Shown here piece after piece: positions 1-11,074 of a DNA stretch of 11,074 bases (the first letter of the stretch is position 1; each line of letters begins with the position of its first letter). The stretch lies in the IMG/VR virus record IMGVR_UViG_2534682164_000010; one strand, 5' to 3'. A model generated the notes under the pieces. It worked only from the letters and a program-made list of their open reading frames with translations. It had not been told where the DNA came from and did not search any database. The position numbers were made by a program, and so were the translations under genes. The stretch comes from a virus (taxonomy: Duplodnaviria; Heunggongvirae; Uroviricota; Caudoviricetes).

Positions 1-394
1 CAGGTCTGGGTGGCGGACCTGACGTATGTTGCCACACAGGAGGGATGGTTGTACCTCGCTGGCATCAAAGATGTTTATACGTGCGAAATTGTCGGCTACG
101 CCATGGGAGAGCGCATGACAAAAGAGCTGACAGGTAAAGCCCTGTTTATGGCGCTCAGGAGCCAGCGCCCACCTGCCGGGCTAATCCACCACTCTGATCG
201 AGGTTCACAGTACTGCGCATACGATTACCGGGTCATACAGGAGCAGTCTGGTCTGAAAACATCAATGTCGCGTAAAGGTAACTGTTACGACAACGCTCCG
301 ATGGAAAGCTTCTGGGGAACGCTGAAAAATGAGAGCCTGAGCCACTATCGTTTTAATAACCGGGATGAAGCCATCTCAGTAATACGGGAATACA
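1..394 (+). pseudogene. IS600 orfB (transposase) internal segment, broken at 394/395 by IS1
   Basis: Translation (frame of ORF 10..399) is identical to the corresponding part of the intact 272-aa OrfB at 8695..9513; the reading frame runs into the IS1 terminus and stops at 397-399. Confidence 0.9.
386..394. repeat. IS1 target-site duplication GGGAATACA (left copy); right copy at 1163-1171
   Basis: Seen in sequence: identical 9-mer immediately flanks both IS1 ends. The intact IS600 copy has this 9-mer once (9410-9418). IS1 is known to make 8-9 bp duplications. Confidence 0.9.
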
Positions 395-409
395 GGTAAT
401 GACTCCAAC

Positions 410-913
410 TTATTGATAGTGTTTTATGTTCAGATAATGCCCGATGACTTTGTCATGCAGCTCCACCGATTTTGAGAACGACAGCGACTTCCGTCCCAGC
501 CGTGCCAGGTGCTGCCTCAGATTCAGGTTATGCCGCTCAATTCGCTGCGTATATCGCTTGCTGATTACGTGCAGCTTTCCCTTCAGGCGGGATTCATACA
601 GCGGCCAGCCATCCGTCATCCATATCACCACGTCAAAGGGTGACAGCAGGCTCATAAGACGCCCACGCGTCGCCATAGTGCGTTCACCGAATACGTGCGC
701 AACAACCGTCTTCCGGAGACTGTCATACGCGTAAAACAGCCAGCGCTGGCGCGATTTAGCCCCGACATAGCCCCACTGTTCGTCCATTTCCGCGCAGACG
801 ATGACGTCACTGCCCGGCTGTATGCGCGAGGTTACCGACTGCGGCCTGAGTTTTTTAAGTGACGTAAAATCGTGTTGAGGCCAACGCCCATAATGCGTGC
901 AGTTGCCCGGCAT
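410..913 (-). CDS. insB: IS1 InsB (transposase catalytic part, made as an InsAB fusion by -1 frameshift)
   Basis: ORF translation matches recalled IS1 InsB. The slippery AAAAAAC motif lies on the minus strand at 850-856, inside the insA/insB overlap. Confidence 0.95.
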
Positions 914-1107
914 CCAACGCCATTCATGGCCATATCAATGATTTTCTGGTGCGTACCGGGTTGGGAAGCGGTGTAAGTGAACTGCAGTTGCCATGTTTTA
1001 CGGCAGTGAGAGCAGAGATAGCGCTGATGTCCGGCAGTGCTTTTGCCGTTACGCACCACCCCGTCAGTAGCTGAACAGGAGGGACAGCTGATAGAAACAG
1101 AAGCCAC
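832..1107 (-). CDS. insA: IS1 InsA (transposition regulator, 91 aa)
   Basis: ORF translation [43 protein letters not shown]... matches recalled IS1 InsA. Confidence 0.95.
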
Positions 1108-1162
1108 TGGAGCACCTCAAAAACACCATCATATACTAAATCAGTAAGTTGGCAGCATCACC

Positions 1163-1266
1163 GGGAATACATTGAGATTTTCTACAATCGTCAGCGTCGT
1201 CACTCTCGTCTGGGGAATATCTCCCCGGCAGCCTTCAGGGAAAAATATCATCAGATGGCTGCTTAA
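1163..1266 (+). pseudogene. IS600 orfB 3' segment distal to the IS1 insertion (stop TAA 1264-1266)
   Basis: Codons from 1165 encode EYIEIFYNRQRRHSRLGNISPAAFREKYHQMAA*, identical to the C-terminus of the intact OrfB in copy 2. Confidence 0.85.
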
Positions 1267-1309
1267 AAAAAGAACAAATGGTAGTGTCCGCTATTGCCAG
1301 TACACCTCA

Positions 1310-1451
1310 GGGTATAAGGGGTTATGGCCACCGGACTACCAAACGGCTGCCAGCCCTCTTTCAGTTTATGTGTCAGCTTTTCCGCAAGATCTGACGGCGG
1401 CGCCGCCCTGACAACATCATAGTGTTTAAATGCCATGGTTCTTTCCACCAT
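1310..1451 (-). pseudogene. 5' fragment of a small phage-type gene (MAFKHYDVVRAAPPSDLAEKLTHKLKEGWQPFGSPVAITPYT...) truncated by the IS600 right end
   Basis: Minus-strand ORF 1263..1451 crosses the IS600 terminus at 1309/1310; only the first ~47 codons are non-IS. Its position downstream of Q, tRNAs and cargo suggests it belonged to the region before the lysis cassette. I cannot assign a product with confidence. Confidence 0.4.
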
Positions 1452-1696
1452 CTGAAAAATAATTCTTTAAAATACCTGACATGTAATACAGAAAAAACAC
1501 AAAACCATACCTTAAATAAAAACCTGATTATCAAGCAGATATGCATGGATAAACTACAAGACGAGATATAAACCACCCTGCATTTAAATAAACAATAAAC
1601 AACATCAGAAAAATAATTCTGCTCTATGGTTTACATTCAAAAATATCATTTATACTTTTCAGAACATCACCAGCAAGGCATAAACAAGGAAACTAA

Positions 1697-2032
1697 ATGA
1701 AGTGGATTGTGATTGATACAGTTATCCAGCCATCATGCGGAATATCTTTTTCAGTCATATGGAGTAAAATAAAATTAATAATCTGGTATCAATCGGATGC
1801 TTTCTTACCTCCTGAAAGTATATTTACACTGACTCACACAGGCATCATGCTCAATAACAAAGTGCTACCTGTAACCATTTACAACGTAGTACCATTCAAT
1901 AAAACATTCTGGAATTCAATCAAAAATAGCCAGGAATGCCCTACAAATACAGATAACGTATTGAATGAATGCTTTAATAACCGTTGCACTCTGCAAATAT
2001 GTCCTTATGGACTAAAACAACAAAGTCCATAA
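1697..2032 (+). CDS. hypothetical protein, 111 aa, AT-rich cargo ORF
   Basis: ATG preceded by AAGGAA about 8 nt upstream; possible -10 TATACT at 1651-1656; a perfect stem-loop follows at 2068-2089. By my reading about six of thirteen Ile codons are AUA. No family recognised. Confidence 0.4.
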
Positions 2033-2067
2033 GGAGTTTACTCACATCTGACAAAATCAATATAAAC

Positions 2068-2089
2068 AGCCCCTCCGGAGAGGGGCTGG
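2068..2089. terminator. perfect 9-bp stem / 4-nt loop hairpin CAGCCCCTC-CGGA-GAGGGGCTG between convergent ORFs
   Basis: Seen in sequence. On the minus strand it is followed by a U-rich tract (UUUAUAUUGAUUUU); on the plus strand it lies 36 bp after the stop of ORF 1697..2032. Compatible with a bidirectional intrinsic terminator. Confidence 0.5.
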
Positions 2090-2214
2090 AGAGTGGCGCT
2101 ATGTGCCATTGCATGGTGCCGGGTGCCTCCCGGTGAATTCAGTACCAGCACCTGAATCCGCGATTATCCCATATACCTACTCGCTGATTGCCCCTCCGCA
2201 CAGGGGGATTCACC

Positions 2215-2301
2215 ATGCCAGTTTCTTTTAACAAACTCCCCGCAAACCAGACAACAGTCAACCGCCTGAATTGTGAAGTATTTAAAAATTTCTCCCGCTA
2301 A
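2215..2301 (+). CDS. candidate mini-ORF, 28 aa (MPVSFNKLPANQTTVNRLNCEVFKNFSR)
   Basis: ATG at 2215 preceded by AGGGGGA about 8 nt upstream; stop TAA 2299-2301. Not supported by homology; could be chance. Confidence 0.15.
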   Translation: MPVSFNKLPANQTTVNRLNCEVFKNFSR

Positions 2302-2312
2302 CTGATACCCGG

Positions 2313-2399
2313 CTAACAGTCTGGCGTTTTCTTTTTCAGCAACGGGAAAGCAACAACCACCACACCCGCCACCAGCACACCGTCAGCCAGCACTGACAT
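2313..2399 (-). CDS. candidate small hydrophobic peptide, 28 aa (MSVLADGVLVAGVVVVAFPLLKKKTPDC)
   Basis: Minus-strand ATG at 2399, stop at 2313-2315. One hydrophobic stretch followed by KKK suggests a single-pass membrane peptide. Not supported by homology. Confidence 0.2.
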   Translation of the reverse strand: MSVLADGVLVAGVVVVAFPLLKKKTPDC

Positions 2400-2479
2400 T
2401 ATCCGGCTGCTGCAATGCCATTCACAAAAACAGTAAGCAATCACTTTTTACCGTAACAGGTGATAATCCAGATATGTAT

Positions 2480-2833
2480 CTACCCCAGATGAGTAATCCG
2501 AAGTTCATCCATACCACAGGTCCTGGCTATTCTGTTGTACTCCTGAACAAGAGCAAATAATTCTGAATTAGCAACCATGAACTCATCGCAAACCCTCTGT
2601 ATAGCATCACTATTCAGAATAATAACGTCTCTTCCCGAAAGACGATCAGGAGTACAGAACAAAACTGTCAAACGGCTGAAGGCCTTTGCTCGTGCTGCAT
2701 TGACTATATCAATACGCTGCCTAAGGATGAAACACCCCGACGCCTCATCAATATTCACTCTACCCACACCATATGAATGATAAATATTTAATGCTGAAAA
2801 AACCATTAGACCGTATAACAAACACTCAATCAA
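2480..2833 (-). CDS. hypothetical protein, 117 aa by ORF track (TTG start at 2833; first ATG gives 2480..2806)
   Basis: Open frame in AT-rich DNA just downstream (minus sense) of the phage tRNA genes. Contains several AUA and AGA/AGG codons by my reading. No family recognised. Confidence 0.35.
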   Translation of the reverse strand: MIECLLYGLMVFSALNIYHSYGVGRVNIDEASGCFILRQRIDIVNAARAKAFSRLTVLFCTPDRLSGRDVIILNSDAIQRVCDEFMVANSELFALVQEYNRIARTCGMDELRITHLG

Positions 2834-2943
2834 TACTTAACAGAACTTTTATTTTTGACAAACATAAAATATTTTCAACAATATCCTGAGCCAGGTATAT
2901 TTCAGTATAAGGCTCTGCCGGAAGGAATCTGGAAGAATGAATA

Positions 2944-3020
2944 TGGCGCGCTGTACTGGATTCGAACCAGTGACCGATTGCTTAGAAGGCAATTGCTCTG
3001 TCCGGCTGAGCTAACAACGC
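2944..3020 (-). tRNA. tRNA-Arg, anticodon UCU (77 nt including CCA)
   Basis: Reverse complement GCGTTGTTAGCTCAGCCGGACAGAGCAATTGCCTTCTAAGCAATCGGTCACTGGTTCGAATCCAGTACAGCGCGCCA folds as a cloverleaf: 7-bp acceptor stem with one G-U pair, anticodon loop CUUCUAA, T-arm ACTGG-TTCGAAT-CCAGT. Confidence 0.85.
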
Positions 3021-3120
3021 TGAATACCGATAATGGACCGCCATCGGGGACCCGCCCCCGCACCAACAACCCTGTTATCATGTCGTCTGCTCTTCCTGAT
3101 AAGCTAATGGCGGTTTGTGA

Positions 3121-3196
3121 TGGTGGCCCTTGCTGGATTTGAACCAGCGACCTGGCGATTATGAGTCGCTCGCTCTCACCACTGAGCTAAAGGGCC
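3121..3196 (-). tRNA. tRNA with CAU anticodon, most like tRNA-Ile2 (ileX/ileZ type), 76 nt including CCA
   Basis: Reverse complement GGCCCTTTAGCTCAGTGGTGAGAGCGAGCGACTCATAATCGCCAGGTCGCTGGTTCAAATCCAGCAAGGGCCACCA; perfect 7-bp acceptor stem; anticodon stem-loop nearly identical to recalled E. coli ileX. Ile2 versus Met cannot be settled from sequence alone. Confidence 0.8.
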
Positions 3197-3235
3197 GGGA
3201 GCAGAATAATAACGGTCCGTAATTAATTCCGCAAT

Positions 3236-3259
3236 AAAAAACCCGCTCGGCGGCGGGTT
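3236..3259 (-). terminator. intrinsic terminator (tR-prime-like) about 40 bp downstream of the Q stop
   Basis: Minus strand reads AACCCGC-CGCCGA-GCGGGTT followed by TTTTTTATT. Its position after Q matches the lambdoid late-operon arrangement. Confidence 0.6.
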
Positions 3260-3298
3260 GTAGAAACTCTTCTAACGTCAGGCATAAAACGCCCATAG

Positions 3299-4153
3299 TT
3301 ATGACGAATTTACCACAGATTCCGGAAAAATCAACCTAGTTACCTTTTTTAACTGCCGCTCAGCCCATGCTTCTTCAATATCAAACCGGGTCACCAGCGC
3401 ATCATAGAATTTCTTAACTGTTTTTTCCCATGACGCGCGTGTTATCTGGTTTGTCACCTCGCATATAGCATTAAATGCCTCCGTTGATGGTAGTCTTTCA
3501 TAGCCACGACCACCACAACGCTGGCAGTCTCTGATAACAGGCATACCACGTTTTACCGACTCTTCACGATGAATGGCGACACCACGCCCACGGCAATCCT
3601 TACAGGCGGTGGAAACCTCACCCTTTCCGCCACACTCCGGACAGGCAACTTTTACCACCTCCCTGACTTTTTTCCATTCTTCCCAGTAAGACGGATACAC
3701 ACCTTTCGTACACTTTGCCCATACCGGCGGCTTACCATCCGGATACTGGACCTTGTTTGTAAAAACTACGCTTTCAATAAATTTTTCCCCATAGCAACAA
3801 GGGCACTGCTTTTTACTCGCTGCGCTGCGGGCATAATCCTCAAAAGCGTACGAAGCCATAATGCGCATCACTACCGGTTTTATTTCTGCCGGAAGTTTTC
3901 TCAACGCCGCCACACGATCGCACCGACTGAGTGCATAATCTGCCAGTAATTCTGTTGCCCGCGCCCTGTCATTCATACTGATGCCCATTTTCCCCAGGAA
4001 CGCAGAAAACCCCATCTCAGCCCGATTCTGTGTCATGCCCTGCGCGGCCATCACATCAGTGATACTCAGCGCATCTTTTGACGTTGAGGCCGATGCATCG
4101 GTCAGGCAAGGGGATTTTGGGGAGTAGTATTTCGGTAAATCTTCCAGTTTCAT
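3299..4153 (-). CDS. phage late-gene antiterminator Q-like protein (284 aa)
   Basis: Sits directly after rusA and before a terminator and tRNA genes, the canonical Q position. Carries three CxxCxGxG zinc-finger-like repeats (CPECGGKG, CKDCRGRG, CQRCGGRG). N-terminus resembles long-form Q proteins of lambdoid prophages as I recall them. Start overlaps the rusA stop (ATGA). Confidence 0.65.
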   Translation of the reverse strand: MKLEDLPKYYSPKSPCLTDASASTSKDALSITDVMAAQGMTQNRAEMGFSAFLGKMGISMNDRARATELLADYALSRCDRVAALRKLPAEIKPVVMRIMASYAFEDYARSAASKKQCPCCYGEKFIESVVFTNKVQYPDGKPPVWAKCTKGVYPSYWEEWKKVREVVKVACPECGGKGEVSTACKDCRGRGVAIHREESVKRGMPVIRDCQRCGGRGYERLPSTEAFNAICEVTNQITRASWEKTVKKFYDALVTRFDIEEAWAERQLKKVTRLIFPESVVNSS

Positions 4154-4524
4154 TTTTTGACCTGCTCTTCATGCATTATGGGGTAAATCTTCACCCCCAG
4201 ACGTCCACCAGATACTGGCTGACCACGAACGATATTGATTTCATCAAACTGCTCATCGTCCATTAACACTCCCGCATGTGTCAGTGCATCCAGTGGTGCT
4301 TTCAGGATATTGTCCAGGTCACGACGGCGCTTATCCGGTGGCTCTGCAATAATCTTTATCGCCAGTCTTCCGGACAGGCTTAATTTCAGTCGCTGCTGAC
4401 GGACAATAAGCGCCACATCCCGGCGATAACGCTCACCGGCTTTTGATACAAAATATGTGTTGTCACGACGTCGCCAGTAAGTATTCACCGTCGGCGGATA
4501 AGGTAAAATAAACTCATGGCGCAT
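4150..4524 (-). CDS. rusA: RusA-family Holliday-junction resolvase (124 aa)
   Basis: Translation shares the conserved DxRRRDLDN, KAxxDALTxAG and GGRL motifs with recalled E. coli RusA. Confidence 0.85.
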   Translation of the reverse strand: MRHEFILPYPPTVNTYWRRRDNTYFVSKAGERYRRDVALIVRQQRLKLSLSGRLAIKIIAEPPDKRRRDLDNILKAPLDALTHAGVLMDDEQFDEINIVRGQPVSGGRLGVKIYPIMHEEQVKK

Positions 4525-4781
4525 CAGCGCAGCACCTCCTGCACCAGTTTTTCAAACTTTCCGACTCTGGTTTCCAGCTCTGCCACACAGTCCACCAGCT
4601 CATCTACTGCTTTCTGTGCGCGATGCTTCGCCTGCATCAGTTCCCGAAGCGCGGGTACCATATCTTTACGGATAGCGTCTTTTGTTATGCCCGTTTTTTC
4701 GAGTTGTTCAGCATGACGCAGCATTTCCTGCGCGTGTTTACGCAATTGTTCAGGGGTAAAAGTCATTGTCTGGTTGTTCAA
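4524..4781 (-). CDS. hypothetical phage nin-region protein, 85 aa, predicted helical
   Basis: Stop overlaps the rusA start by 1 nt (TGATG), suggesting translational coupling. No family recognised. Confidence 0.5.
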   Translation of the reverse strand: MNNQTMTFTPEQLRKHAQEMLRHAEQLEKTGITKDAIRKDMVPALRELMQAKHRAQKAVDELVDCVAELETRVGKFEKLVQEVLR

Positions 4782-4896
4782 AAGAAACGCTCCATCTTAC
4801 TGCTGTCAGTTCGTTTATTACTGTATCTGCGCGGATTGCCGGGCTTCATGGGAGTGGAAAGCACCCGTGCACTTTCCTGGTCCACAGGCAGAAAAT

Positions 4897-4901
4897 GTCC
4901 G
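4897..4901. repeat. IS2 target-site duplication GTCCG (left copy); right copy at 8251-8255
   Basis: Seen in sequence: identical 5-mer directly abuts both IS2 termini. IS2 is known to make 5-bp duplications. Confidence 0.8.
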
Positions 4902-4992
4902 TAGACTGGCCCCCTGAATCTCCAGACAACCAGTATCACTTAAATAAGTGATAGTCTTAATACTAGTTTTTAGACTAGTCATTGGAGTACAG

Positions 4993-5057
4993 ATGATTGA
5001 TGTCTTAGGGCCGGAGAAACGCAGACGGCGTACCACACAGGAAAAGATCGCAATTGT
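4993..5057 (+). pseudogene. insC: IS2 insC 5' fragment ([22 protein letters not shown]), runs into the IS21-family terminus
   Basis: First 22 codons match recalled InsC; the sequence diverges at 5058. Confidence 0.85.
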
Positions 5058-5115
5058 GTCAACGCCACGATGTTTGACCGTTATTTGCCATTTTCATGCC
5101 CGCTAAATACTTTCG

Positions 5116-7085
<1,970 letters not shown>

Positions 7086-7121
7086 GTTGATGTCCTTTCT
7101 GGTGTGAGAACCTTAAGGAAA

Positions 7122-7376
7122 CAACATGGTGTAGCAGCCAGCCAGTTATTTCTCTGGCGTAAGCAATACCAGGAAGGAAGTCTTACTGCTGTGGCCGCCG
7201 GAGAACAGGTTGTTCCTGCCTCTGAACTTGCTGCCGCCATGAAGCAGATTAAAGAACTCCAGCGCCTGCTCGGCAAGAAAACGATGGAAAATGAACTCCT
7301 CAAAGAAGCCGTTGAATATGGACGGGCAAAAAAGTGGATAGCGCACGCGCCCTTATTGCCCGGGGATGGGGAGTAA
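7122..7376 (+). pseudogene. insC: IS2 insC 3' fragment ([10 protein letters not shown]...PGDGE*, 84 codons)
   Basis: Matches the C-terminal 84 residues of recalled InsC. About 15 codons (QQSFEPGMTVSLVAR) are absent between the two fragments. Frameshift motif AAAAAAG at 7328-7334. Confidence 0.85.
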
Positions 7377-8239
7377 GCTTAGTCAGCCGTTGTCTCCGGG
7401 TGTCGCGTGCGCAGTTGCACGTCATTCTCAGACGAACCGATGACTGGATGGATGGCCGCCGCAGTCGTCACACTGATGATACGGATGTGCTTCTCCGTAT
7501 ACACCATGTTATCGGAGAGCTGCCCACGTATGGTTATCGTCGGGTATGGGCGCTGCTTCGCAGACAGGCAGAACTTGATGGTATGCCTGCGATCAATGCC
7601 AAACGTGTTTACCGGATCATGCGCCAGAATGCGCTGTTGCTTGAGCGAAAACCTGCTGTACCGCCATCGAAACGGGCACATACAGGCAGAGTGGCCGTGA
7701 AAGAAAGCAATCAGCGATGGTGCTCTGACGGGTTCGAGTTCTGCTGTGATAACGGAGAGAGACTGCGTGTCACGTTCGCGCTGGACTGCTGTGATCGTGA
7801 GGCACTGCACTGGGCGGTGACTACCGGCGGCTTCAACAGTGAAACAGTACAGGACGTCATGCTGGGAGCGGTGGAACGCCGCTTCGGCAACGATCTTCCG
7901 TCGTCTCCAGTGGAGTGGCTGACGGATAATGGTTCATGCTACCGGGCTAATGAAACACGCCAGTTCGCCCGGATGTTGGGACTTGAACCGAAGAACACGG
8001 CGGTGCGGAGTCCGGAGAGTAACGGAATAGCAGAGAGCTTCGTGAAAACGATAAAGCGTGACTACATCAGTATCATGCCCAAACCAGACGGGTTAACGGC
8101 AGCAAAGAACCTTGCAGAGGCGTTCGAGCATTATAACGAATGGCATCCGCATAGTGCGCTGGGTTATCGCTCGCCACGGGAATATCTGCGGCAGCGGGCT
8201 TGTAATGGGTTAAGTGATAACAGATGTCTGGAAATATAG
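7334..8239 (+). CDS. insD: IS2 InsD (OrfB, transposase catalytic domain; normally made as InsCD fusion)
   Basis: 301-aa ORF matching recalled IS2 InsD; stop lies inside the right terminal inverted repeat as expected. Confidence 0.9.
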
Positions 8240-8355
8240 GGGCAAATCCAGTCCGTTATAAAAACGCCGGTAAATCGTTCCCAGAGAACCGTGAGGTAGC
8301 CTGAGTTTAACGGACACTCCTTCCTGAAATAGAATGGCATCAGAAGGAGCTAATA

Positions 8356-8658
8356 ATGAGCAGAAAAACCCAACGTTACTCTAAAGAGTTCAAAGCCGAA
8401 GCTGTCAGAACGGTTCCTGAAAATCAACTTTCGATCAGTGAAGGCGCTTCCCGATTATCTCTTCCTGAAGGCACTTTAGGACAATGGGTTACCGCCGCCA
8501 GAAAAGGGCTCGGTACTCCTGGTTCCCGCACGGTGGCTGAACTGGAATCTGAAATTCTGCAACTGCGTAAGGCGTTAAATGAAGCTCGCCTTGAGCGAGA
8601 TATATTAAAAAAAGCAACAGCGTATTTTGCACAGGAGTCGCTGAAAAATACGCGTTAA
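8356..8658 (+). CDS. IS600 OrfA (HTH transposase subunit, 100 aa)
   Basis: Preceded by GGAG; contains slippery A7G run at 8599-8606 near its 3' end, typical of IS3-family programmed -1 frameshifting. Confidence 0.9.
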   Translation: MSRKTQRYSKEFKAEAVRTVPENQLSISEGASRLSLPEGTLGQWVTAARKGLGTPGSRTVAELESEILQLRKALNEARLERDILKKATAYFAQESLKNTR

Positions 8659-8694
8659 TCGAACAATGGGCGACAACAATTTCCCATTGAAGCG

Positions 8695-9513
8695 ATGTGT
8701 CAGGTATTTGGTGTATCCAGGAGCGGTTATTACAACTGGGTACAGCATGAACCCTCAGACAGAAAACAAAGTGATGAGCGGCTAAAACTGGAGATTAAGG
8801 TGGCACATATCCGCACTCGCGAAACATATGGAACCCGGCGGCTCCAGACGGAGCTGGCAGAGAATGGCATCATTGTTGGTCGTGACCGACTGGCACGTCT
8901 TCGTAAGGAGCTAAGGCTACGCTGTAAGCAGAAACGCAAGTTCAGAGCGACTACGAACTCGAACCACAATCTGCCAGTTGCGCCAAATCTGCTGAACCAG
9001 ACGTTCGCTCCTACAGCACCAAATCAGGTCTGGGTGGCGGACCTGACGTATGTTGCCACACAGGAGGGATGGTTGTACCTCGCTGGCATCAAAGATGTTT
9101 ATACGTGCGAAATTGTCGGCTACGCCATGGGAGAGCGCATGACAAAAGAGCTGACAGGTAAAGCCCTGTTTATGGCGCTCAGGAGCCAGCGCCCACCTGC
9201 CGGGCTAATCCACCACTCTGATCGAGGTTCACAGTACTGCGCATACGATTACCGGGTCATACAGGAGCAGTCTGGTCTGAAAACATCAATGTCGCGTAAA
9301 GGTAACTGTTACGACAACGCTCCGATGGAAAGCTTCTGGGGAACGCTGAAAAATGAGAGCCTGAGCCACTATCGTTTTAATAACCGGGATGAAGCCATCT
9401 CAGTAATACGGGAATACATTGAGATTTTCTACAATCGTCAGCGTCGTCACTCTCGTCTGGGGAATATCTCCCCGGCAGCCTTCAGGGAAAAATATCATCA
9501 GATGGCTGCTTAA
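8695..9513 (+). CDS. IS600 OrfB (DDE transposase catalytic domain, 272 aa from first ATG; natively fused to OrfA by frameshift)
   Basis: Contains the DDE-integrase core with HSDRGSQY and the C-terminal YNxxRxHSxLG-like motif. Confidence 0.9.
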   Translation: MCQVFGVSRSGYYNWVQHEPSDRKQSDERLKLEIKVAHIRTRETYGTRRLQTELAENGIIVGRDRLARLRKELRLRCKQKRKFRATTNSNHNLPVAPNLLNQTFAPTAPNQVWVADLTYVATQEGWLYLAGIKDVYTCEIVGYAMGERMTKELTGKALFMALRSQRPPAGLIHHSDRGSQYCAYDYRVIQEQSGLKTSMSRKGNCYDNAPMESFWGTLKNESLSHYRFNNRDEAISVIREYIEIFYNRQRRHSRLGNISPAAFREKYHQMAA

Positions 9514-9555
9514 AAAAGAACAAATGGTAGTGTCCGCTATTGCCAGTACACCTCA

Positions 9556-10493
9556 AGGCCACTGCGGAAGACGTGAAAAGCACGGGGAAAAACGCCGTCT
9601 TATCCGGTCAGCGTGCACAGGCAGCCGCAGGTTATGCCCGCGCAGCAGAACAGGCCAAAAATGACATTGATGCTGCGCTGACCGGCACTCTGAAAACGGC
9701 TAACCATCTGTCTGAAATCGCAGCAGCAGGCGAAAAGGCACAACAGAAGTCCCGGGATAATCTGGGGCTGAAAAGTGCGGCCACGATGGAAGCACAGAGC
9801 GACATTTACGACCGGACAAAAGGCCGTCTGGCGATACCCGGCGCATTCGGCTTTGGGTGTGCTTTTCTGCCTGAAGATGTTATCCGTTTTGACACTAAGA
9901 GTGATTTCCTGGCCTGGGTAAGGAATGCGCTGCCAGGTGAATATTCCGTTGCTGGCCCCTACGACATCATCATACCCGACACACGGTTTGAAGGGGTGCT
10001 CAGCATCCGGTGGACTGATGCACGCCCTGAGACAACAGAACCGCGGTACAGAGCCAAATCCCTTACTTTTTACGGCATTAACGGCCCCATTTATCACACC
10101 CGCTACTGCTACTGGCCCATATCCAGACTGACTGGCTGGGTGAAAATAAATATAACCACAGAAGATATTATTTACAGAATCGTGGCGAGCTCTGTCCGCA
10201 ACAGATGGGGAGACCCTGACATTGGCGGGCTGATTATTGCTGCGTACCAGGGAGAAGCTGACGGTGATAAAGTCATCAGACTTGTCAGGGGGCAGTCATA
10301 CAGAGGCTCACGACTGGGACCGGTGGGGATTTCAGTGCCCAGTACTCCCACCGGAACGTATATAGCATCCCCACAATTTTTCATTACGGGATGTTCAGAG
10401 CATTCATTACCGGGGTCATATTGCGCCCTGTCCGGGGTGCCGGATGCACATGTCTCTGGCGCAATGCCCGGGCTTTTTATTCGCACATCGTGA
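9556..10493 (+). pseudogene. phage tail-fibre-like gene, C-terminal ~312 codons, 5'-truncated by IS600
   Basis: Open frame begins exactly at the IS600 right end. The Ala/Gln/Lys-rich helical stretch followed by a Gly/Tyr-rich globular C-terminus resembles side tail fibres, and a putative assembly gene follows. Identification is by resemblance only. Confidence 0.45.
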
Positions 10494-10688
10494 GGAATGC
10501 ACCGTGGAAATTAAAAAATCATTAATCCCCGTTATACCGAAAGTGGCGCAGTAGACTGTGACGTTTTTTTTGACGACAGGGACCAGGCAGTCCCCTACAC
10601 AGCCACCGCTGATGATGTCGCACCGACGGGTCAGCAAATCTGGCAGGAACTGCAAAGTGGCAAATGGGGTGAGATAGCCCCATTCACT

Positions 10689-11066
10689 GTGACACCAGAA
10701 ATGCTGGAAGCGGCCAGAGAGGCCAGGCGTCAGGAAATTGAAGCATGGCGCGCAGAACAGGAGGCGAAGCCGTTCACGTTTGAATGGAACGGTCGTATCT
10801 GGAATGCTGGTCCCGACTCACTGGGCCGCCTGTCCCCGGTAGTCATGCTGGCAAAATCTGTCACAGCACAAACACATATGGCGTGGAGCGATGCCGATAA
10901 TCAGCAGGTGAAACTGTCGATGCCGGAACTGGAAGAACTGGCGGCAGCAATGGTGCAGGCGCAGGTCGATCGCAACGATGAGATTTATCGCCGTCAGCGT
11001 GAAATGAAAGAGGAGCTGAGCGGTCTGGATGATTTGGCTTCAATTCGGGCGTTTGACGTTGAGTAA
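10689..11066 (+). CDS. putative tail-fibre assembly/chaperone protein; frame is open from 10515 and an in-frame ATG at 10497 is followed by TAA at 10512-10514
   Basis: Position immediately after the tail-fibre gene; ORF track start is a GTG at 10689. Length from 10497 to the stop would be 189 codons, typical of such proteins. Family not verifiable without a search. Confidence 0.4.
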   Translation: MTPEMLEAAREARRQEIEAWRAEQEAKPFTFEWNGRIWNAGPDSLGRLSPVVMLAKSVTAQTHMAWSDADNQQVKLSMPELEELAAAMVQAQVDRNDEIYRRQREMKEELSGLDDLASIRAFDVE

Positions 11067-11074
11067 TGAATAAG

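Follow-up and report, generated by a model that had tools for sequence, protein, structure and literature searches.

Inversion and deletion at IS600 probably shaped the decayed core of an ipaH prophage in Shigella sonnei

Here, we analysed an 11,074-nucleotide stretch of DNA deposited as the virus record IMGVR_UViG_2534682164_000010 (the window, i.e. the whole stretch), in which two copies of the insertion sequence (IS) IS600 border a segment of phage DNA. The window is a complete draft contig of Shigella sonnei 53G (ADUU01000128.1) and is 99.96% identical to the finished chromosome of this strain (HE616528.1, locus L004). Comparison with related genomes makes it highly probable that the window represents the decayed core of a lambda-like ipaH prophage at yecD/yecE, and that both IS600 copies are recombinant joints. 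The flanks of the two copies map to four different sites in relatives, and the arrangement is common to every S. sonnei chromosome that we retrieved.

Copy 2 (8292-9555, plus strand) is a complete element of 1264 bp with the ends TGAGGTAGCC...CAGTACACCTCA. Its terminal sequence starts with TGAGGTAGCC... and closes with ...GTACACCTCA, giving imperfect terminal inverted repeats of the form TG...CA. It encodes orfA (8356-8658, 100 aa) and orfB (8695-9513, 272 aa). The latter matches NF033516 (E 1.1e-99), HTH_Tnp_1 and rve Pfam domains were found on the called IS600 genes, and the element is 99.5-99.9% identical to RefSeq copies annotated 'IS3-like element IS600 family transposase'. By its length, its ends, the helix-turn-helix (HTH) domain of orfA with the DDE/rve domain of orfB, and its near-identity to annotated copies, copy 2 is an IS600 of the IS3 family. 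The original prediction had placed two IS600 copies in the same orientation at 1-1309 and 8292-9555, which holds for copy 2 and for the orientation: both copies lie on the plus strand, are 99.8% identical and have identical right ends. The left interval, in turn, proved to contain only the last 532 nt of IS600 together with an IS1 that splits them, cut at the contig end. Element nt 734-1127 occupy 1-394 (100% identical to copy 2 at 9025-9418), and nt 1119-1264 occupy 1163-1309, with the right end ...CAGTACACCTCA, the right flank GGG and one extra A compared to copy 2. A repeat search of the window returned the pair as two blocks with different offsets (1-300 to 9025-9324 and 1162-1270 to 9409-9517). 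The first 733 nt of copy 1 are outside the window because the draft contig ends inside the repeat; the uncut copy is visible in complete genomes, e.g. at 8350-9613 of locus L002. The single-nucleotide difference between the copies, the extra A within an A-run, is probably a sequencing error of the draft.

We refer to the left and right flanks of copy 1 as A and B, and to those of copy 2 as C and D. In complete S. sonnei genomes the copy 1 joint reads ...GCTGATTAG/IS600/GGGTATAAGG (slashes mark joints), i.e. with the flanking trinucleotides TAG and GGG, and the copy 2 joint reads ...GAGAACCG/IS600/AGGCCACTG, i.e. with CCG and AGG. All four flanks were identical in 10/10 S. sonnei loci, and the copy 2 pair was also found in two further ones (L016 and L017). 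Reading of the sequence thus confirmed the earlier observation that copy 2 lies between CCG and AGG without a 3-bp duplication. Among TAG, GGG, CCG and AGG, no pairing was found, either directly or as reverse complement. Four control IS600 copies all carried perfect 3-bp duplications (GTG in S. sonnei locus L008; CAT, GTG and AAG in a prophage of enteroinvasive Escherichia coli, EIEC), so that the duplication is the norm and copies 1 and 2 are the exceptions. It had been proposed to compare the left flank of copy 1 with the other junctions. This flank, TAG, matches neither flank of copy 2 nor its own right flank GGG, and copy 1 is therefore a rearrangement joint as well. Neither copy has the 3-bp duplication and the flanks contiguous in relatives that characterize a simple insertion.

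Where do the four flanks reside in genomes without these joints? We assigned them to four sites: p0 in an element to the left, p1 in a helicase gene, p2 in a DUF1737 gene and p3 between nt 478 and 479 of the side tail-fibre gene stf. The three phage sites are uninterrupted in the EIEC prophage: p1 as ...GAGAACCG/TTACGTTG (TTACG after the site), p2 in EIEC locus L014 at 30958 as ...GCCTGCATCA/GGGTATAAGG (CATCA/GGGTAT), and p3 as ...GGACAGAA/AGGCCACTG (CAGAA/AGGCCA). Flank A belongs to a truncated 203-aa open reading frame (ORF) that is part of another phage-like element, one with genes for a resolvase, Dam and an HTH protein. The ORF runs on in E. coli PEC178 (GATTAG/TGACC) toward tape-measure and baseplate genes, and its cluster representative (P0017) comes only from short contigs ending at the IS. 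None of the four sites is interrupted in relatives, which marks the arrangement in S. sonnei as derived. We also considered flank A as the other half of the nin-region gene that is cut at flank C, as a two-ended inversion would have it, and rejected this, flank A being part of an unrelated element.

The closest counterpart of the locus is the prophage of EIEC strain FDAARGOS_944 (NZ_CP065613.1, 452.9-500.8 kb), which is lambdoid and near complete, carries ipaHd, measures about 48 kb and is flanked by yecD and yecE. Its genes follow each other as dinI, ipaHd, tfa, stf, lom, J, tail, head, terminase, lysis, DUF1737, iraM and tRNA, followed by Q, RusA, an 85-aa ORF, helicase, replication and immunity genes, xis and int. 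We oriented the loci such that both chromosomal flanks are collinear: on the left cmoA-yecN-yecE' (99.2% identity) and on the right stf3'-tfa-ipaH-dinI-yecD-aspS (99.1%). In this frame the interior of the window aligns with the EIEC prophage in inverted orientation at 99.35-99.43%. The inverted segment comprises the DUF1737 fragment, iraM, the tRNAs, Q, RusA, the 85-aa ORF and the 3' end of the helicase gene. Two stretches are absent from the S. sonnei locus: the lysis, head and tail genes that separate p2 from p3 (about 23.4 kb) and the integrase-to-replication genes from p1 to int (about 17 kb). Because the interior is inverted with respect to the tail-fibre/ipaH end, deletion alone is insufficient and at least one inversion and at least one deletion are needed. 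The two flanks of copy 2 are about 26 kb apart, on opposite strands and uninterrupted in this EIEC prophage, in agreement with the original view that copy 2 marks a rearrangement and not a simple insertion. Among 5426 E. coli genomes, the same 10, which are EIEC, contain both flanks C and D at >=95.6% identity (C at >=99.5%). In six of these ten, the helicase/85-aa module and the stf allele are 22-27 kb apart on opposite strands; in the window, they lie on the same strand and share one IS600. The EIEC prophage thus resembles the S. sonnei locus in its site and, at 99.1-99.4% identity, over every retained segment. It differs in being near complete and collinear, in having its three IS600 as simple insertions at other sites, and in lacking the tRNA-Arg/DUF3927 stretch, the IS2 with its nested IS21 and the left-hand resolvase/Dam element of S. 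sonnei. It is probably the ancestral form.

The inversion and the losses can be read from this comparison, from which we infer the number, order and mechanism of the events. Four IS600 sites (p0-p3) and two events would yield all four flanks as well as the direct orientation of the copies. In one history (a), inverted IS600 copies at p1 and p3 would have recombined and inverted the 26-kb interval, which would create copy 2 with CCG and AGG and would give the p2 copy the orientation of copy 2. With the p0 and p2 copies now direct, a deletion between them would then have left TAG/IS600/GGG and eliminated the early region together with the reciprocal joint and the late region in its inverted state. 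In the other history (b), an inversion between p0 and p2 would have come first and a deletion between p1 and p3 second. RecA-dependent homologous recombination between IS600 copies would be the most likely mechanism; in Shigella, rearrangements between IS copies usually take the route of homologous recombination (PMC7373316, PMC8072062). IS2 with its nested IS21, and IS1, would have inserted later as ordinary events. An inversion between the two visible copies was rejected, as it would need inverted copies and these are direct.

Several points weigh against this reconstruction. Histories (a) and (b) fit equally well, and the joints do not resolve their order. Intramolecular IS600 transposition with inversion or deletion would leave identical joints; elements of the IS3 family normally move through a circular intermediate, which yields simple insertions. 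The missing late region might have moved elsewhere in the S. sonnei chromosome instead of being deleted, and similar modules are present in other lambdoid remnants of S. sonnei, among which there may be a donor prophage. Furthermore, the searches made revealed neither a simple IS600 insertion at p1, p2 or p3 nor the reciprocal inversion joint. The partner joints predicted by the reconstruction are the 5' part of stf joined to the left IS600 end (GGACAGAAAGG/TGAGGTAGCC), the right IS600 end joined to the 5' part of the helicase gene (...GTACACCTCA/CCGTTACGTTGTTTCG), the 3' part of the DUF1737 gene joined to the left IS600 end (...GCCTGCATCAGGG/TGAGGTAGCC), and the right IS600 end joined to the rest of the left element (...ACCTCA/TAGTGACCATCAAAAAATCGC). 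When the four partner junctions were concatenated and searched for in E. coli genomes, IS600-end fragments swamped the ranking and no full junction could be recognised. The predicted stf5'::IS600 fusion protein (162 aa, ...EDRKVR) was not found in a search of cluster representatives only, and two variants of this fusion were not found by a look-up limited to exact matches. The stf5'/IS600 junction had 0 exact matches in genome and metagenome contig collections that hold no S. sonnei; the window's own copy 2 junction, taken as a control, also had 0 matches there.

Could fewer or different events account for the locus? A single IS600-mediated deletion, or an adjacent-deletion transposition, that fused the nin region with the tail-fibre gene and was the only event would explain an IS600 copy without duplication whose flanks are about 26 kb apart in the intact prophage, and history (b) does make copy 2 a deletion joint. 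A deletion, however, keeps the orientation of what it joins, and nin/Q and stf are on opposite strands in the six EIEC prophages and on the same strand here. Copy 1, moreover, also lacks a duplication and joins unrelated DNA, and an inversion is needed too; we therefore hold a lone deletion to be very improbable. A long-range exchange between IS600 copies in different prophages or loci, by which the interior would have been imported and not inverted in place, appears unlikely. Many IS-bounded inversions and translocations are known from Shigella chromosomes (PMC8072062; PMC7373316), flank A does stem from an unrelated element, and modules similar to flank B are common in E. coli prophages (2251 genomes matching). 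Yet the same ten EIEC genomes possess both the rare helicase/85-aa module and the stf allele, within a single prophage that also occupies the yecD/yecE site and is about 99.1-99.4% identical to the S. sonnei pieces, and both chromosomal flanks of the locus retain their native order and orientation. An import is less parsimonious than an inversion in place, given that a single prophage at this very site matches all pieces.

The bracketing of a 7-kb segment by two IS600 copies of the same orientation also brings to mind a composite transposon that moved as a block. The outer flanks, TAG and AGG, are different, not the identical outer duplication that such a transposon would leave; flanks A and D are not contiguous in any relative and belong to different elements; and the right flank sits in its native prophage and chromosomal context. 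We regard this explanation as hardly credible. Finally, a draft contig with five IS copies that ends inside an IS600 and shows homopolymer discrepancies to the finished genome would be a candidate for misassembly, but the same order and junctions are present in finished 53G and in 11 other complete or near-complete S. sonnei chromosomes, which leaves practically no room for an artefact. Inversion plus deletion at IS600 copies appears as the best account of the joints.

Is the segment between the direct repeats unstable? Direct IS600 repeats are present at its two ends, as in IS-flanked amplifiable or deletable units of the Shigella dysenteriae stx type. Such IS600 repeats are substrates for homologous deletion or duplication, and the defective stx prophage of S. 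dysenteriae type 1 is reportedly flanked by IS600. The analogy with that locus is reasonable in form: both are IS-eroded, IS600-bracketed lambdoid remnants that include a Q/late-regulatory region. The window differs in having no toxin or obviously selectable cargo, in an interior that is half IS DNA, in a copy 1 split by IS1, and in that no copy-number or deletion variants occur among the contigs examined. The stx region, for its part, is reported to be highly conserved across S. dysenteriae 1 genomes (PMC7819885). Deletion of the unit would leave the joint ...GGCTAAGCTGATTAG/IS600/AGGCCACTGCGG, and tandem duplication would create ...CCCAGAGAACCG/IS600/GGGTATAAGGGG. No CCG/IS600/GGG joint and no second iraM were found in 10 S. 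sonnei loci of 20 kb each, nor any TAG/IS600/AGG joint or tandem copy in contig sets of 33, 19 and 7; this sampling is small and largely conditioned on genes inside or beside the unit, and assemblies hide rare subpopulations. The only variation among the S. sonnei chromosomes is an IS1 in copy 1, an IS1 in copy 2, or neither. Overall, it seems quite unlikely that the 8.2-kb unit (one IS600 plus the interior) is recurrently deleted or amplified by recA-dependent recombination in S. sonnei, frequently enough to alter a phenotype. If it were, RpoS stability could be affected through the IraM-like anti-adapter, or AGA/AUA decoding through the two rare-codon tRNAs, and the locus would be a parallel to the stx amplification in S. 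dysenteriae 1.

The IS1 within copy 1 (395-1162, minus strand, 768 bp, ends GGTAATGAC...GCATCACC) is flanked by a perfect 9-bp target duplication, GGGAATACA, at 386-394 and 1163-1171, and its InsB ORF (410-913) matches NF033558. In 53G, it divides the homology of copy 1 into 1127 and 137 bp; an IS1 insertion in an IS600 copy thus shortens the homology available for recombination. This insertion is shared by the 53G-type loci L004, L016 and L017 and is not in copy 1 of the other nine S. sonnei loci. In three loci (L003, L005 and L010), an IS1 instead lies within copy 2, with a 9-bp duplication equivalent to window positions 8798-8806, and in the remaining loci neither copy carries one. These variable insertions are potentially usable as lineage markers.

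The locus adds one more instance, from a published genome, to the already described IS-driven decay of prophages in Shigella. IS1, IS2, IS600 and IS21 were reported to be expanded in S. sonnei (Hawkey et al. 2020, PMC7373316; Seferbekova et al. 2021, PMC8072062). These studies are genome-wide surveys, in which we found no reconstruction of the present locus joint by joint. Since both IS-mediated rearrangement and the decay of prophages are well known from Shigella, current understanding is unchanged. The locus is of value as a clean, fully resolved example of insertion sequences dismantling a prophage that carries a virulence gene: the ipaH and tail-fibre end was kept in place, the regulatory core was flipped and 40 kb were lost. 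It helps to explain why chromosomal ipaH genes are found amid phage scraps and insertion sequences without recognisable islands.

The IS600-bounded interior (1310-8291) measures 6982 bp, of which only 3628 bp are phage DNA (1310-4901 and 8256-8291), the other 3354 bp being IS2 with a nested IS21-type element. The description as a 7-kb prophage remnant therefore overstated the phage content, which amounts to 3.6 kb. With Q, RusA, phage tRNAs and an identity of 99.1-99.4% to lambdoid prophage segments, the interior has the make-up of a lambdoid prophage remnant. Its phage genes all lie on the minus strand except iraM. At the copy 1 joint, a DUF1737 gene (1310-1436, minus strand; PF08410 in S. 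sonnei loci) is truncated to its 5' 127 bp (42 codons). An iraM-like anti-adapter gene follows, a prophage moron on the plus strand (1697-2032; PRK09919, E 4.7e-48, 162 bits against a cutoff of 121). Located between the DUF1737 fragment and Q, it is a candidate RpoS stabiliser, and the exact protein is indexed in 4016 blocks of a public assembly collection. Downstream of Q, ARAGORN predicts two minus-strand tRNA genes, tRNA-Arg(UCU) at 2944-3020 and a tRNA with the anticodon CAU at 3121-3196, whose homologue carries the annotation tRNA-Ile in relatives from E. coli. Of these two, only the Ile tRNA is present in the EIEC relative, which is without the stretch equal to window positions 2358-3064.

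The late antiterminator Q (3299-4153, minus strand; PF03589, E 7e-55) and the Holliday-junction resolvase RusA (4150-4524, minus strand; PF05866, E 1.8e-16) are followed by a minus-strand stretch that reaches to IS2 (4524-4901) and contains, according to the EIEC annotation, an 85-aa nin-region ORF (4524-4781) and the 3' end of the replicative helicase gene; the EIEC records name the two products as a hypothetical protein and a replicative DNA helicase. Ten EIEC genomes match this stretch at >=99.5% identity; all other E. coli reach about 89% at most. The helicase remnant of the window corresponds to the last 160 bp of the gene; the 36 bp of this remnant beyond IS2 (8256-8291, minus strand, flank CCG) are the last phage DNA before copy 2 and end at site p1. 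The claim that the nin region borders copy 2 on the left needs a qualification here. What directly adjoins the element is 41 bp, i.e. this 36-bp helicase remnant and the 5-bp IS2 duplication, and contiguity with the nin/Q segment emerges once IS2 is removed: 4300-4901 and 8256-8291 are then colinear with EIEC FDAARGOS_944 at 99.8% identity.

IS2 occupies 4902-8250 on the plus strand in two parts (4902-5056 and 7127-8250), flanked by the 5-bp duplication GTCCG at 4897-4901 and 8251-8255. Its OrfB (7334-8239) matches PRK09409 (E 1.3e-219), and the element also matches IS2 in phage and E. coli records. With their 9-bp and 5-bp family duplications, IS1 and IS2 are full-length simple insertions. 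Nested within IS2 on the minus strand is an IS21-type element (5057-7126) with istA (5913-7085) and istB (5116-5916), with matches to NF033546 and NF038214; the annotated IS21 of phage fiAA91-ss matches it at about 100% identity. No target duplication accompanies the joint of this element with IS2, where 41-46 bp of IS2 are gone (about IS2 nt 158-203). The element is about 2070 bp long, with a 5-bp microhomology, CAACA, at its right end. The same boundaries are found in phage fiAA91-ss, where likewise no clear duplication is visible. IS2, the nested IS21 and the IS1 in copy 1 are events separate from the IS600 rearrangement.

To the right of copy 2, the window contains the 3' 935 nt of stf (9556-10493, plus strand), starting with nt 479 of 1413 at site p3 and 99.1-99.6% identical to the intact EIEC gene, and the tail-fibre assembly gene tfa (DUF4376; 10444-11067, plus strand; PF14301), with a frameshift at an A-run near 10512. 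This gene is intact in complete genomes (compared with L004, L016 and L017), and its frameshift in the window is probably an error of the draft sequence. Compared with finished 53G, positions 665-666 of the window show an AC/CA swap, and the length differs by one base each at 8668, 9511 and 10512, the latter two in A-runs; the sequence is otherwise the same. In short-read S. sonnei contigs (L018-L025), a paralogous tail-fibre allele is joined to internal IS600 positions. We considered these as an intermediate with IS600 in stf and both flanks retained and rejected them: the stf/IS600 breakpoint differs in every assembly and the allele involved is the paralogous one (P0003), and we judged the contigs to be assembly chimeras across repeats.

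On the far left of the locus, L004 1314-7572 is an unrelated phage-like element with a small resolvase/invertase, a Dam methylase, an HTH protein and hypothetical proteins. It is fused without an IS to the middle of yecE, in place of the int end of the prophage. A relative in E. coli PEC178 (L012), which has a large serine recombinase at its end, is located between yciI and tonB. In S. sonnei locus L008, this left-hand element contains an additional, inverted IS600 (2731-3994) with a clean GTG duplication, which suggests a genome-specific insertion at the locus.

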